Source: Heterodontus francisci (lineage: Eukaryota). From it: DNA of 64,000 nucleotides. A program made the translations under genes and the position numbers. Location: NCBI RefSeq assembly GCF_036365525.1, contig NC_090387.1, positions 88,453,691 through 88,517,690 of the forward strand. The letters are read 5' to 3'. Below, piece after piece: positions 31,475 to 58,071 of this stretch (within the stretch, counting starts at the first letter, position 1; each line of letters starts with the position of its first letter). The notes under the pieces are model-generated. The model did no database searches, had not been told where the DNA came from, and saw only the letters and a program-made list of their open reading frames with translations.

Positions 31475-34400
31475 ACATAGAAACATAGAAAACTAAGAGC
31501 AAATGTAGGCCATTTGGCCCTTCGAGGCTGCTCCACCATTCAATACGATCATGGTTGATCATCCAAACTCAGTACCATGTTCCCACCTTCTCCACAATGC
31601 CTTGATCTCTTTAGCCCCAAGAATTATATCTAACTTGTTTTTAAAATATATTTAATGATTTGGCCTCAACTGCTTTCCGTGGCAGAAAATTCCACAGGTT
31701 CACCACTTTCTGGGTGAAGAAATCTCTCCTCATCTCAGTCCTAAATCGCTTACCCCTTATCGTTAGACTGTTACCCCTGGTCCTGGCCTCCCCTGCCATC
31801 AGGAACATCCTTCCTGCATCTAGTCTGTGCAGTCCTGTTAGAATTATGTAGGTTTCTATGAGATCCCCTCTCATTCTTCTAAACTCCAGTGAATACAGGC
31901 CGAATCGACTCAATCTCTCTTCATACATCAGTCCTGCCCTTCCCAGGAATCAGTCTGGTGAACTTGTGCTGCACTCTCTCCTTAACAAGAACATCCTTCC
32001 TCAGATAAGGAGACAAAAACTGCACACAATACTCAAGGTGTGGTCTCACCAAGGCCTTGTATAATTGCAGTAAGACATCCCTGCTCCTATTCTCTAATCC
32101 ACTCGCTATGAAGGCCAACATACCATTTGCCTTCTTAACTGCCTACTGCACCTGCATGCTTACTTTCAGCGACTGGTGCACAAGGTCACCCAGGTCTCAC
32201 TGTGCCTCTCTCTTTCCCAATCTATCGCCGTTCAGATAATAATCTGCCTCCTTGTTTTTGCCTCCAAAGTGGATGACTTCATATTTATCCACATTAAAGT
32301 GCATCTGCCATGTATTTTCCCAATAAATCAAACTGTCCAAATTACACTGGAGCTTCTCTGCATCCTCGTCACAGCTCACAGTCCCCACCCCCCCCCCCCC
32401 CAGCTTTGTATTGTCTGCAAACTTGGATATATTACATTTAGTTCCATCATCTATATCATTAATATATGTTACAAATAGCTGGGGATCTCGTACTGAACGA
32501 CCAAATACAGCACATCCACTAGTTCCCCCTTATCTATTCTACTAGTTACATCTTCAACAAGCTCCATTAGATTTGTCAAGCATGATTCCCCTTTCATAAA
32601 TCCATGTTGACTTTGTCCGCTTCTGTCACTGTCTTCCAACTCCTCTACTATTACATCTTTTATAATGGACTCTAGCATTTTCTGCACTGCTGATGTCAGG
32701 CTAACCAATCTATAATTCCCTCTTTTCTCTCTACCTCATTTTTTAAATAGTGGGGTTACATTATCTACCCTCCAATACGTTGGAACTGTTCAGAGTCTAT
32801 AATACTCTGGGATGTAGATTATCAGGCCCTGGGGATTTATGGGCCTTCAATCCCATCAATTTCCCTCACACGATTTCCCTACTAATGCTGATGTCATACA
32901 GTTCCTCCTTCTCACTAGACTCTATGCTCCCCAATATTTCTGGGAGGTAATTTGTGTCCTCCTTTGTGAAAACAGAACCAAAGTATGTATTTAACTGGAC
33001 TGCCATCTATTATAATTCCCCATTATAAATCCCCCCATTTCTGACTGAAAGGGACCCGAATTTGTCTTCACTAATCTTTTTCTCTTCACCTATCTGTAGA
33101 GGTTTTTACAGTCAGTTTTATGTTCTCTGCAACATTACTCTCAAACTCTATTCTCGCCTTCTTAATCAATCCCTTTGTCCTCCTTTGCTGAATTCTAAAC
33201 TGCTCCCAATCCTCAGGTTTGCTGCTTGTTCTGCCCATTTTATATTTCTCCTCCTTGGATCTAATACTATTCCTAATTTCTTTTGTAATCCACGGTTGAG
33301 CCACCCTTCCTGTTTTATTTTTGCACTGGAATGAACAATTGTTGTAATTCATCCATGCGATCTTTAAATGTTAGCCAGTGCCTCTCCACTGTCAACCCTT
33401 TAAATAACGTTCCCCAATCTATCATAGTGAAATCACACCTCATACCTTCATAGTTTCCTCTATTTAGATTCAGGACCCTAGTCTTAGAATCAACTCTCTC
33501 ATTCTCCATCTTAATGGCAATCTCTACATGTTATGGTCACTCTTCCCTAATGGCCTCCATGCAACAAGATTGCTAACTAATCTTTTCTCATTACACAATA
33601 CCTAGTCTAGGATAACCTGTTCTCTTGTTGGTTCCTCAACGTATTGGTCCAAAGAACCATCACGTATGCACTCCAGGAATTCCTCCTCTACAGTATTATT
33701 GCTAATTTGGTTTGCCCAAATCATACATAAATTGAAATTACCCATAATTACAGTTGTTCATTTATTGCATGCATCTCGAATTTCTTGTTTAATGCCAACC
33801 TCTGCATCACCACTGCTGTTTGGGGGGTCCTATATACAACCCTCACCAATTTTTTTTCTTCCCCTTGATGTTTATTAGCTCCACCCATACAGATTCCTCA
33901 TCAGGATTCTCTGAGCTAATATCCTTCCTCACTGTTGCATTGATTTCCTCTTTTACTAACAACGCTGCTCCACCTCCTTTCCCCTTTTGCCTGGCCTTCC
34001 TAAATATTGAATACCCTTGGATGCTCAGTTCCCATCCCTGCAGCCCTATCTCCATAATCGCAACTATATTTTATCAATTTACATCTATTTGTGCAGTTAA
34101 TTCACCTACCTCATTGTGAATACTTCATGCTTTGAGACATAATGCCGTTAGGCTTGTCTTTTTAACATTCTTAGTCATCTTAGCATTATTTTGCAATATG
34201 ACCCTATTTGTTTCTTGCCCTTGATTTCTGTGCCTTCCACTTTTGCCTTTTTGTTTCCTGCCTTTCGTTTCTATTCTTGTTTCCTCCTCCTCAGTCTCCC
34301 TGCTTGCATTCCCATCCCCCTGCCATTTTAATTTAAATCCTCCAAACAGCACTAGGGGATGGCCACAGGAGACTCCTAAACTACACACCTGCACCTATTA

Positions 34401-35100
34401 CTCTGCATGGTGGTCACCCATCCTTTTTCTGCCTGTGCAGCAATTACGTGCGGTGTGACCACCTCGCTAAACATGCTGTTATAACATTCTCAGCATCGTG
34501 GATGCTCCACAGTGAATATATCCGCAGTTCCAGCTGTGCAATGCAGTCAGTCAGTAGCTGCAGCTGGACACACTTCCTGTACACATGGTTTCCCACATAG
34601 CACAGGGGGAGCATGCCACGGGGATGCGCTTTCCTACCATGACTTACCTTTAGATCAAGCTCCTTGGTTACTCTCTTTAATGTACAGTACTAATTACTCT
34701 AGGGAACTTATTCCACTCCAAACACGACCTGCTACAATCTAAAGTCCATACCTTTGCTTTTACTTCAGCGACTGAAAGTAGTAAAAACGGTAGACATACC
34801 CATCTGTTCCTACTTACCAATCCGCTACCTCGCCTTGGAATGCATCGCTTTCTGAACTGTGACGTCAGTCGTGGAACTCTCTCGCTGTCCCTGTGAGAGT
34901 GTGTGAGAGTATGCCTCTTTTAAGCCGCTGGAACTCCTGATCGCCGTTCCTTGGCCCCTCACAGGTCCGTCTGGGTCTCACACTTTCCAAGGCCTCTCGT
35001 AGCCTCTTTTAAGTCGCTGGAATCCCCGTTCACAGGTGCTTGTCCCCTCGCAGGTCCGCCTCGGTCTCGGTCCTTCCCACTGCGGCTGCTCTTTTAAATT
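31475..35100 (-). mobile_element. Near full-length decayed CR1 with internal deletions (5' UTR, partial ORF1, EN, RT, tail)
   Basis: QGYSIFRKARQKGKGGGAALL, QHGFMKGESCLTNL, RPHLEYCVQF, YEERLSRFG; (CATAGAAA) tail repeats at 31475; short 5' repeats near 34915-35090. Confidence 0.88.
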
Positions 35101-53588: not shown

Positions 53589-56480
53589 CTACACTATTCC
53601 ATTTACATCCATATGTCTATCCAATGACCACTTAAATGCCCTTAAAGTTGGCGAGTCTACTACTGTTGCAGGCAGGGCGTTCCACGCCCCTACTACTCTC
53701 TGCGTAAAGAAACTACCTCTGACATCTGTCCTATATCTTTCACCCCTCAACTTAAAGCTATGTCCCCTCGTGTTTGCCATCCTCATCCGAGGAAAAAGAC
53801 TCTCACTATCCACCCTATCTAACCCTCTGATTATCTTGTATGTCTCTATTAAGTCACCTCTCCTCCTCCTTCTCTCTAACGAAAACAACCCCAAGTCCCT
53901 CAGCCTTTCCTCGTAAGACCTTCCTTCCATACCAGGCAACATCCTAGTAAATCTCCTCTGCACCCTTTCCAAAGCTTCGACATCCTTCCTATAATGCGGT
54001 GACCAGAACTGCACGCAATACTCCAGGTGCGGCCTCACCAGAGTTTTGTACAGCTGCATCATGACCCCGTGGCTCCGAAACTCGATCCCCCTACTAATAA
54101 AGGCTAACACACCATATGCCTTCTTAACAGCCCTATTAACCTGGGTAGCAACTTTCAGGGATTTATGTACCTGGATACCAAGATCTCTCTGCTCATCTAC
54201 ACTACCAAGAATCTTCCCATTAGCCCAGTACTCTGCATTGCTGTTACTCCTTCCAAAGTGAATCACCTCACACTTCTCCGCATTAAACTCCATTTGCCAT
54301 CTCTCAGCCCAGCTCTGCAGCCTATCTATGTCCCTCTGTACCCTACAACACCCTTCGACACTATCCACAACTCCACCGACCTTCGTGTCATCCGCAAATT
54401 TACTAACCCACCCTTCTACACCCTCATCCAGGTCGTTTATAAAAATGACAAACAGCAGTGGCCCCAAAACAGAACCTTGCGGTACACCACTAGTAACTAA
54501 ACTCCAGGATGAACATTTGCCATCAACCACCACCCTCTGTCTTCTTTCAGCTAGCCAATTTCTGATCCAAAGCTCTAAATCACCTTCAACCCCATACTTC
54601 CGTATTTTCTGCAATAGCCTACCGTGGGGAACCTTATCAAACGCCTTACTGAAATCCATATACACCACATCCACGGCTTTACCCTCATCCACCTGTTTGG
54701 TCACCTTCTCGAAAAACTCAATAAGGTTTGTGAGGCACGACCTACCATTCACAAAACCGTGCTGACTATCGCAAATGAACTTATTCTTTTCAAGATGATT
54801 ATAAATCCTGTCTCTTATAACCTTTTCCAACATTTTACCCACAACCGAAGTAAGGCTCACAGGTCTATAATTACCAGGGCTGTCTCTACTCCCCTTCTTG
54901 AACAAGGGGACAACATTTGCTATCCTCCAGTCCTCCGGCACTACTCCTGTCGACAATGACGACTTAAAGATCAACAACAACGGCTCTGCAATCTCCTCCC
55001 TGGCTTCCCAGAGAATCCTAGGATAAATCCCATCTGGCCCAGGGGACTTATCTATTTTCACTCTTTCCAAAATTGCTAACACCTCCTCCTTGTGAATCTC
55101 AATCCCATCTAGCCTAGTAGGCTGTATCTCAGTAATCTCCTCGGCAACATTTTCTTTTTCTACTGTAAATACTGACGAAAAATATTCATTTAACGCTTCC
55201 CCTATCTCCTCTGATTCCGCACACAACTTCCCACTACTATCCTTGATTGGCCCTGTTCTAACTCTTATCATTCGTTTATTCCTGATATACCTATAGAAAG
55301 CCTTAGGGTTTTCTTTGATCCTATCCGCCAATGACTTCTCGTGTCCTCTCCTTGCTCTTCTTAGCCCTCCCTTTAGATCCTTCCTGGCTAGCTTGTAACT
55401 CTCAAGCGCCCTAACTGAGCCTTCACGTCTCATCCTAACATAAGCCGCCCTCTTCCTCTTGACAAGCGCTTCAACTTCTTGAGTAAACCACGGCTCCCTC
55501 GCTCGACAACTTCCTCCCTGCCTGACAGGTACATACTTATCAAGGACACGCATTAGCTACTCCTTGAATAAGCTCCACATTTCGTTTGTGCCCATCCCCT
55601 GCAGTTTCCTTCCCCATCCTACACATCCTAAATCTTGCCTAATCGCGTCATAATTTCCTTTCCCCCAGCTATAATTCTTGCCCTGCGGTATATACCTGTC
55701 CCTGCCCATCGCTAAGGTAAACCTAACCGAATTGTGATCACTATCGCCAAAGTGCTCACCTACATCTAAATCGAACACCTGGCCGGGTTCATTACCCAGT
55801 ACCAAATCCAATGTGGCATCGCCCCTGGTTGGCCTGTCCACATACTGTGTCAGAAAACCCTCCTGCACACACTGAACAAAAACAGACCCATCTAAAGTAC
55901 TCGAACTATAGTATTTCCAGTCAATATTTGGAAAGTTAAAGTCCCCCATAACCACTACCCTGTTACTCTCGCTCCTGTCGAGAATCATCTTCGCTATCCT
56001 TTCCTCTACATCTCTGGAACTATTCGGAGGTCTATAGAAAACTCCCAACAGGGTGACCTCTCCTCTCCTGTTTCTAACCTCGGCCCATACTACCTCAGTA
56101 GACGAGTCCTCAAACGTCCTTTCTGCCGCTGTAATACTTTCCTTGATTAACAATGCCACACCCCCCCCTCTTTTACCCTCTTCTCTGTTCTTTCTGAAAC
56201 ATCTAAATCCCGGAACCTGCAACATCCATTCCTGCCCCTGCTCTACCCATGTCTCTGAAATGGCCACAACATCAGGATCCCAGGTACCAACCCATGCTGC
56301 AAGCTCACCCACCTTATTCCGGATGCTCCTGGCGTTGAAGTAGACACACTTTAAACCAAGTTCTTGCTTGCCAGTGCCCTCTTGCGTCCCTGTAACCTTA
56401 TCCCCTACCTCACTACTCTCAACAGCCTGTACACTGGAACTACAATTTAGGTTCCCATTCCCCTGCTGATTTAGTTTAAA
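53589..56480 (-). pseudogene. CR1 ORF2 (APE endonuclease + RT) with one premature TAG at 55557-55559
   Basis: The 251-aa and 654-aa ORFs are in the same frame, separated by FKE*LMR. The frame stays open upstream through CVYFNARSIRNK to the ORF1 end with no ATG there. Confidence 0.92.
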
Positions 56481-57412
56481 CCCCCCCGAAGAGCACTAGC
56501 AAATCTCCCCCCCAGGATATTGGTACCCCTCTGGTTCAGGTGAAGACCATCCTGTTTGTAGAGGTCCCACCTACCCCAGAAAGAGCCCCAATTATCCAGG
56601 AAACCAAAACCCTCCCTCCTACACCATCCCTGCAGCCACGTGTTCAACTCCTCTCTCTCCCTATTCCTCTCTTCGCTAGCACGTGGCACAGGCAACAACC
56701 CAGAGATAACAACTCTGGTTGTTCTCGCTCTAAGCTTCCACCCTAGCTCCCTGAATTTCTGCCTTAAATCCCCATCTCCCTTCCTACCTATGTCGTTGGT
56801 GCCTATGTGGACCACGACTTGGGGGTGCTCCCCCTCCCCCTTAAGGATCCCAAAAACACGATCGGAGACATCACGTACCCTGGCACCTGGGAGGCAACAC
56901 ACCAACCGTGAGTCTCTCTCGTTCCCACAGAACCTCCTATCTGTTCCCCTAACTATGGAGTCCCCAATGACTAATGCTCTGCTCCTCTTCCCTTTTCCCT
57001 TCTGAGCAACAGGGACAGACTCTGTGCCAGAGACCTGCACCCCATTGCTTACCCCTGGTAAGTCGTCCCCCCCAACAGTATCCAAAACGGTATACCTGTT
57101 GTTGAGGGAAACGGCCACAGGGGATCCCTGCACTGCCTGCTGGTTCCCTTTCCTTCCCCTGACGGTAACCCATCTACCTACTTCTTTTACCTGAGGTGTG
57201 ACTGCCTCCCTATAACTCCTGTCAATAATCCCCTCCGCCTCCCGAATGATCCGAAGTTCATCCAGCTCCAGCTCCAGTTCCCTAATGCGGTCTGCGAGGA
57301 GCTGGAGTTGGGTGCACTTCCCGCAGATGCAGTCAGCAGGGACACTCTTGGCGACCCCTACCTCCCACATTCTGCAGGAGGAACATACAACTGCCTTTAC
57401 CTCCATTCCCAC
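56471..57412 (-). CDS. CR1 ORF1p (Cys zinc finger / leucine zipper + SGNH esterase domain), 313 aa
   Basis: CSSC..CGKC, coiled coil IRELELELDEL, VIGDSIV, CLPGA, HIGTND, DGLHLN. Confidence 0.93.
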   Translation of the reverse strand: MGMEVKAVVCSSCRMWEVGVAKSVPADCICGKCTQLQLLADRIRELELELDELRIIREAEGIIDRSYREAVTPQVKEVGRWVTVRGRKGNQQAVQGSPVAVSLNNRYTVLDTVGGDDLPGVSNGVQVSGTESVPVAQKGKGKRSRALVIGDSIVRGTDRRFCGNERDSRLVCCLPGARVRDVSDRVFGILKGEGEHPQVVVHIGTNDIGRKGDGDLRQKFRELGWKLRARTTRVVISGLLPVPRASEERNREREELNTWLQGWCRREGFGFLDNWGSFWGRWDLYKQDGLHLNQRGTNILGGRFASALRGGLN

Positions 57413-57605
57413 TATTCTAGATTCCCAATAAATCTACTGAAAAACCAAACGAAAAAAAAAGTCAAAACTTGTTCGCTTAGCAATCCGACGGACTGAACTT
57501 TTTAAATAAAAAGCTTACCTTATCAACACACTAGAGTCCTTTTTTTTTGGTTAGAGGAGGAGGGTGGATGGGAGACACTACACGTGTAGTGTCTCGGGTA
57601 CTGCC

Positions 57606-58071
57606 ACTGCCCAAATAAATAGTTTTCCCCTACCCAGCAGTCCCCGGTCCTCCGAAACAAAAAAGGGATTAACTTGCAACTTACTGAAATTGACCGCTCA
57701 GCTGAAAGTCCGCTCCGCACCTCGTTCTGTCAACGCTGCTCCTCGCAAAAGACAAAGATTTTAAAACTGCCCAAATAAATAGTTTTCCCCTACCCAGCAG
57801 TCCCCGGTCCTCCGAAACAAAAAAGGGATTAACTTGCAACTTACTGAAATTGACCGCTCAGCTGAAAGTCCGCTCCGCACCTCGTTCTGTCAAGGCTGCT
57901 CCTCGCAAAAGACAAAGATTTTAAAACTGCCCAAATAAATAGTTTTCCCCTACCCAGCAGTCCCCGGTCCTCCGAAACAAAAAAGGGATTAACTTGCAAC
58001 TTACTGAAATTGACCGCTCAGCTGAAAGTCCGCTCCGCACCTCGTTCTGTCAAGGCTGCTCCTCGCAAAAG
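57606..58071 (-). repeat. 160-bp tandem repeat, ~2.9 copies, at the CR1 5' end
   Basis: Units start at 57606, 57766 and 57926 and are almost identical. Confidence 0.95.

Follow-up and report, generated by a model that had tools for sequence, protein, structure and literature searches.

How LINEs translate their second open reading frame (ORF2) is an open question according to one review, which, in the parts of its text available, does not list frameshifting for non-LTR elements (PMC3894237). In mammalian L1, ORF2 is thought to begin by AUG-independent initiation (PMC5009743), and in SART1 ORF2 is reached by reinitiation at an overlapping UAAUG aided by a downstream structure (PMC3894237; PMC10275272). 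L1 and SART1 share with CR1 a bicistronic RNA and a low output of ORF2, and one CR1 lineage described below also has a UAAUG; they differ in making a free ORF2p, and a slippery heptamer is absent from the descriptions of them that we found. According to a review, the Dictyostelium elements TRE5-A and TRE3-A depend on a -1 frameshift for their ORF2 (PMC5911963). They are APE-type non-LTR elements that differ from CR1 in clade and in ORF1, and they give frameshifting in non-LTR elements a precedent. In layout, the CR1 junction resembles coronavirus ORF1a/1b and retroviral gag-pol, in which the heptamer U_UUA_AAC and the -1 phase link a structural protein upstream to a polymerase downstream (PMC5009743). 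This heptamer is among the most shift-prone for mammalian ribosomes (PMC5009743). The CR1 junction differs from these sites in having no conserved pseudoknot or stem, a stop codon directly behind the heptamer, and a non-LTR retrotransposon as its host.

CR1-group elements dominate most vertebrate genomes (PMC13343379), and the canonical vertebrate CR1 with an esterase in ORF1 is assigned to CR1 subgroup 7 with an ORF1 of type IVB (PMC4120745, PMC13343379). The words "frameshift" and "overlap" do not occur in the main texts of these two papers, as far as those were available, and ORF2 translation is not addressed there. We found no description of CR1 frameshifting in the literature searched; the first reports on CR1 in turtle and chicken (Kajikawa 1997; Haas 1997, 2001) lay outside that search and may mention an overlap or a frameshift. 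Here we analyse the ORF1–ORF2 junction of a CR1 element from Heterodontus francisci, which, on sequence evidence, is probably a programmed -1 ribosomal frameshift yielding an ORF1–ORF2 fusion.

A CR1 element and its ORF1–ORF2 junction

The element is a nearly full-length LINE that runs from about 58071 to 53520 on the minus strand of the window, by which we mean the whole stretch of 64,000 nucleotides that was analysed. The features relevant to the junction are the following.

57606..58071, minus strand: 5′ terminus, built from 2.9 tandem copies of a 160-bp unit, 99% identical
56471..57406, minus strand: ORF1, 311 aa from the first ATG, with an N-terminal Cys motif and an SGNH/GDSL esterase, ending ...GLN-stop
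56474..56480, minus strand: slippery heptamer U_UUA_AAC in the phase of ORF1, the predicted -1 shift site
56471..56473, minus strand: ORF1 stop codon, immediately 3′ of the heptamer
56454..56463, minus strand: G-rich motif GGGG-AAU-GGG, beginning 11 nt past the heptamer, a candidate linear stimulator
56419..56469, minus strand: stem of the original prediction, with arms 56469-56463/56425-56419 and inner arms 56455-56451/56440-56436, which pairs in the window copy and is not conserved
56343..56473, minus strand: linker in the ORF2 frame from the shift site to the endonuclease, open and AUG-free in the window copy
53589..56480, minus strand: ORF2 in the -1 frame, encoding endonuclease and reverse transcriptase (RT, about 54896-54225)
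55734..56342, minus strand: APE-type endonuclease domain, with the first in-frame ATG (56225-56223) inside it
34316..34337, minus strand: junction of a second, older CR1 whose upstream esterase has been lost; it reads U_UUA_AAU followed by UAA and has five G at +11

The 160-bp units at the 5′ end are possibly promoter monomers. The esterase of ORF1 was identified by a domain match to PF13472 (E 3e-15), and the -1 frame gives domain matches to the endonuclease PF03372 and the RT PF00078. Canonical vertebrate CR1 has the same Cys motif and SGNH esterase in ORF1 and the same APE endonuclease and RT in ORF2, and the closest named proteins come from sharks and rays. The element fits the canonical esterase-type vertebrate CR1, an assignment to CR1 and not to L2 that rests on the type of its ORF1 and on the report that chondrichthyan L2 is without ORF1 (PMC13343379, in the part available). 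Its family is young, with copies about 98–99.7% identical, and the 21-mer spanning the junction has 2,366 exact copies in the 6.0-Gb genome. The window copy carries a private TAG in ORF2 at 55559-55557, where 58 of 59 loci read CAG, and so cannot itself yield a full-length ORF2p.

The 5′ UTR of the element contains an intron-like stretch of 82 nt (57437-57518, minus strand) with an AG/GTAAGC donor, a U-rich tract and a CAG acceptor, ending 31 nt upstream of the ORF1 ATG. A pattern search of the genome gave no match to processed copies without this stretch, and no joint matching it was seen in the contigs examined, in which a sequence can be scored as present only. The older CR1 copy in the window (33360-34640, minus strand) has an ORF1 that has lost the whole esterase, so that only its N-terminal part and last codons are left. 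Despite this loss, it retains near 34337 the U_UUA_AAU junction layout with five G at +11; near 34645 it too has AAG/GTAAGT directly before the ATG.

At the junction, ORF1 ends GGT TTA AAC TAA, as the original prediction states, which places TTTAAAC (56480-56474) in frame with ORF1 and directly before its stop (56473-56471). The -1 frame is closed five codons 5′ of the heptamer. Downstream it has the AUG-less form that the prediction had given it: it is open into the endonuclease, and its first Met, codon 86, lies inside that domain, after the NARS and ISETW motifs, which carry active-site residues of APE endonucleases. The window's family provides no usable AUG for ORF2, and an overlapping UAAUG stop-start is absent from it.

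Conservation of the junction and of its 3′ side

In the window, TTTAAAC directly precedes 2 of the 6,371 stop triplets counted in any frame. The evidence decisive against chance is conservation across lineages rather than this frequency. Junctions were recruited with esterase-motif patterns that leave the heptamer out (28,747 and 25,959 matches) and with protein queries. The patterns provided 115 loci, 55 of them chosen by hand among the places listed, in most cases to include rare variants of the motif. We counted 82 and dropped 33, namely 20 duplicates and 13 loci without a detected endonuclease motif. Among these 13, nine have the exact heptamer and stop, two are one letter off, one is interrupted and one is unrelated DNA; there are no counter-lineages among the 13. 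The data set comprises 18 lineages, five of which are single decayed copies; this genome supplied 17 of the 18 and a metagenome contig the other. Linker similarity set the limits of the lineages; in addition, we merged three singletons by eye to give two of them. Their ORF1s are 37–77% identical to that of the window, and the tree length is 5.65 substitutions per site. The column profile was anchored on the best heptamer match; a fixed anchor of 78 nt from the esterase motif gives the same register for most copies, except those with indels in the G-run. One set of loci (L061-L067, G000:C1:70243-184736) consists of near-identical CR1 copies that recur at intervals of about 18.5 kb close to the beginning of contig C1, which suggests a large tandem array.

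TTTAAAC is present in 72 of the 82 distinct junctions and is followed by a stop in 67; the junctions without it mostly show one-letter changes in single old copies. By lineage, the seven columns of the heptamer are kept in 18, 18, 18, 17, 18, 18 and 18 of 18. The codon before UUA takes seven forms (GGT, GCT, ACT, AGT, GTT, CAT and GAT) for seven amino acids, and ends in U in all of them. TTA encodes the terminal Leu in 17 of 18 lineages, compared with modal shares of 0.29–0.82 at 21 control Leu codons, and none of 82 four- or six-fold control codons reaches a modal share of 0.94. On the tree, this Leu codon has changed once (control mean 5.4, minimum 3, n = 15) and the terminal Asn codon not at all (control mean 3.6, n = 7). 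The lineage-majority stop behind the heptamer is TAG in 10, TAA in 7 and TAT in 1 of the 18 lineages, the last being a single decayed copy. An additional family, fetched later, has the exact heptamer and stop in 15 of 18 readable copies. As judged from these alignments, the constraint on the heptamer is on its nucleotides, beyond the residues alone. Heptamer and frame, whose lack of conservation in CR1 had been named as what would refute the original prediction, are both kept across lineages, synonymous positions included.

Beyond this genome, a metagenome contig (L091), with an ORF1 that is 35% identical, shares the heptamer, stop and G-run and likewise has an open, AUG-free -1 frame. Relatives occur in sharks, rays, coelacanth, frog and turtle. 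In ORF1 relatives, the terminal LN lies 25 residues past the D of the DGxH motif. Among 78 relatives with this motif, 62 end 20–34 residues past it and 51 of these 62 end in LN, as counted on proteins only. The LN-ending proteins include ones named from Xenopus, Latimeria (coelacanth), Chrysemys (turtle) and Paramormyrops (teleost), for which the evidence is again protein alone; esterase ORF1s from a more distant group have different C-terminal ends. In contigs of four other organisms, no variants are listed at 56472-56483, and many flanking positions vary. Scans of metagenomes and viruses gave one useful locus out of 12 and none out of 1, respectively, and a distant ORF1 query (P0071) returned matches from the dominant families only. 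One protein labelled as a Pseudomonas aeruginosa SGNH hydrolase (P0006) is 76% identical to the ORF1 of this element and ends like one lineage of this genome; the record is probably contamination by host DNA.

Most -1 sites need a pseudoknot or stem on their 3′ side. A stem had been proposed as the stimulator, and its pairings, UCAGCAG (56469-56463) with CUGUUGA (56425-56419) and GGAAC with GUUCC, do exist and occur in the minimum free energy fold of the window copy; the role given to them found no support. The stem begins just 4 nt after the heptamer. Its stability, -15.5 kcal/mol, is that of shuffled sequence (z -0.47, with 57 of 200 shuffles equally good), and it pairs in 44% of cells against 41% when shuffled (51 of 500 shuffles as high). 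RNAalifold, in pseudoknot-free folding, gave no consensus pairs 3′ of the heptamer over the 18 lineages, and with one copy per lineage the fold z was above -2 in 17 of the 18 windows and below it in one. A classical stable and conserved stem-loop 5–9 nt downstream is not found over these lineages. A lineage among the window's closest relatives can form a version of the stem with 7 of 7 pairs, three of them G-U. Overall, shuffle-level stability, the lack of a consensus fold and the lack of covariation lead us to reject this stem as a conserved stimulator.

The feature conserved on this side is a G-rich motif free of structure, which starts 11 nt downstream of the heptamer and is a candidate linear stimulator. 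G is found at +11, +12 and +18 in 18 of 18 lineages, compared with only 10–13 of 18 for the positions of the spacer from +4 to +10. The motif keeps a fixed distance from the heptamer while the intervening spacer varies freely. It also encodes G-x-G, and its third positions (GGG in 11 of 13 and 10 of 13) lie within the range of the Gly controls (0.31–0.93). This signal is weaker than that of the heptamer, so that protein constraint may partly explain the motif and the evidence for it is weaker than for the heptamer. A search inside the element for a long-range partner of the motif found only G-U-rich runs against U-tracts, nothing convincing. The arrangement resembles the nsp2 frameshift of PRRSV, in which nsp1beta and PCBP stimulate shifting on CCCANCUCC, which lies 11 nt downstream of the shift site (PMC5009743). 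Both motifs are short, unstructured and equally distant from the shift site, a likeness of position only: the CR1 motif is G-rich and has no known protein stimulator, whereas that of PRRSV is C-rich and has one.

The ORF2 frame and alternative routes to it

In 13 of the 18 lineages (12 by script and L227 by eye), at least one copy has a -1 frame open to the endonuclease motif. One further lineage has the endonuclease in the -1 frame across stops. In the other four (seven old copies) it lies in another frame in every sampled copy, and the frame is unreadable in these lineages because the copies carry indels and stops. The linker measures 35–71 codons, and its sequence also differs between lineages. 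Among the 12 lineages scored for start codons, seven have no AUG ahead of the endonuclease in most copies and five have one; the heptamer is retained in all five. In one of these five (16 copies), stop and start overlap as UAAUG, and in all 13 copies that are readable this AUG is in phase with ORF2; the other four have an in-frame AUG within the linker. The lineage with UAAUG, the only one of the 18, is the L189-L218 family (e.g., L189:1552-1661, plus strand). It carries heptamer and stop-start together, which makes it a natural test case for frameshifting versus reinitiation.

These start codons are what one would expect if ribosomes terminated at the UAA or UAG and restarted close by in the ORF2 frame, on an AUG or any other codon, in which case the conserved letters would serve to signal reinitiation and the product would be a free ORF2p. 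Such a route also has precedents in LINEs, having been proposed for L1 and shown for SART1. We nevertheless regard it as unlikely. It predicts no X_XXY_YYZ heptamer in the exact phase of ORF1, does not account for the U that is fixed at the free first position, and needs no constant -1 phase. In the 18 lineages the stop is overlapped by 11 different codons, among them AAT, GAA, GAT and GCT. The frameshift and reinitiation routes could coexist.

A further reading, which we consider very improbable, is that the letters are fixed for other reasons (a constraint on L and N in the protein combined with codon bias, or a binding site in RNA or DNA) and that ORF2 is reached by leaky means, such as slippage on the G-run fusing the frames. 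L and N are indeed invariant in the ORF1 proteins, and 459 genomic copies have eight G before the heptamer, which fuses the frames, with another 142 having six. A protein constraint, however, is unable to fix synonymous bases, and a G-run upstream of the heptamer is found in few lineages. In a different G-run, within the endonuclease, gains of letters likewise outnumber losses. The copies with eight G are scattered on the tree (18 changes, compared with 16 when shuffled) and thus show no sign of constitutive fusions spreading. We also considered them as an amplifying subfamily; their apparent clustering is an artefact of subfamily sampling, and there is none within one subfamily. One such copy, L153 (G000:C817:633500-639500), has a single open frame of 1,281 codons in which ORF1 is fused to ORF2, and its contig contains two further copies with long frames.

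The least credible reading is a separate ORF2 mRNA made by splicing or from an internal promoter, the junction being a branch point and 3′ splice site (YAG/G) or a TATA-like box: many lineages do read ...TTTGGCAG/GGG behind the stop and the 5′ UTR has a textbook pair of donor and acceptor, but the processed copies expected from splicing were not seen (a genome-wide pattern for copies that retain the 3′ side and lack the junction matched 37 places, heterogeneous in their upstream DNA, and the 30 of them examined included no join to an earlier part of the element at a GT donor), no joint at the junction appears in contigs from seven distinct samples and eight runs (informative for presence only, and mostly guessed to be RNA), the AG is missing in several lineages, and such an mRNA would still be without an AUG in seven of the 12 scored lineages.

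Proposed mechanism and significance

The near letter-for-letter conservation of the heptamer, together with an ORF2 that lies one base back and is often without a start codon, suggests that the copying enzyme likely comes from ribosomes that slip. Of the original prediction, the putative -1 shift at U_UUA_AAC joining ORF1 to ORF2 is supported, with heptamer and frame conserved at synonymous positions, while the stem as its stimulator is not. Under programmed -1 frameshifting, the majority of ribosomes would terminate at the UAA and yield ORF1p. A minority, pausing while UUA occupies the P site and AAC the A site, would re-pair on UUU AAA and read on into ORF2. The pause might be supplied by slow termination at the adjacent stop together with the G-rich motif at +11, which possibly acts through a bound protein because no conserved fold exists. 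The predicted product is a fusion of 1,272 aa (311 + 961 residues) comprising ORF1, endonuclease and RT in gag-pol fashion. This fusion would be the working enzyme, and the rate of shifting would set the ratio of ORF1p to ORF2p; given that there is no conserved 3′ stem, the efficiency of the shift could be low. Overall, the junction is real and conserved, and it is a strong candidate for a -1 frameshift in vertebrate CR1 LINEs, with a stimulator other than the one first proposed.

More tentatively, and with considerable doubt, we suggest that esterase-type CR1, the LINE that dominates in most vertebrates, may have made its RT by -1 frameshift fusion since the origin of jawed vertebrates, with a structure-free signal (U_UUA_AAC, the adjacent stop and the G-motif at +11) switched on by a bound protein, possibly ORF1p or a host protein that binds G-runs. 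If so, this would be a counterpart, in a cellular mobile element, of the transactivated frameshifting of arteriviruses. The putative signal is shorter than 30 nt. Were a strong shift to occur without RNA structure, that alone would interest the recoding field. For the CR1 family, a conserved -1 frameshift, if true, would mean a gag-pol logic in which the esterase is covalently tied to the endonuclease and RT. It would explain the AUG-less ORF2, and it would shift the ORF2 start that is assumed in CR1 annotation and in retrotransposition assays.
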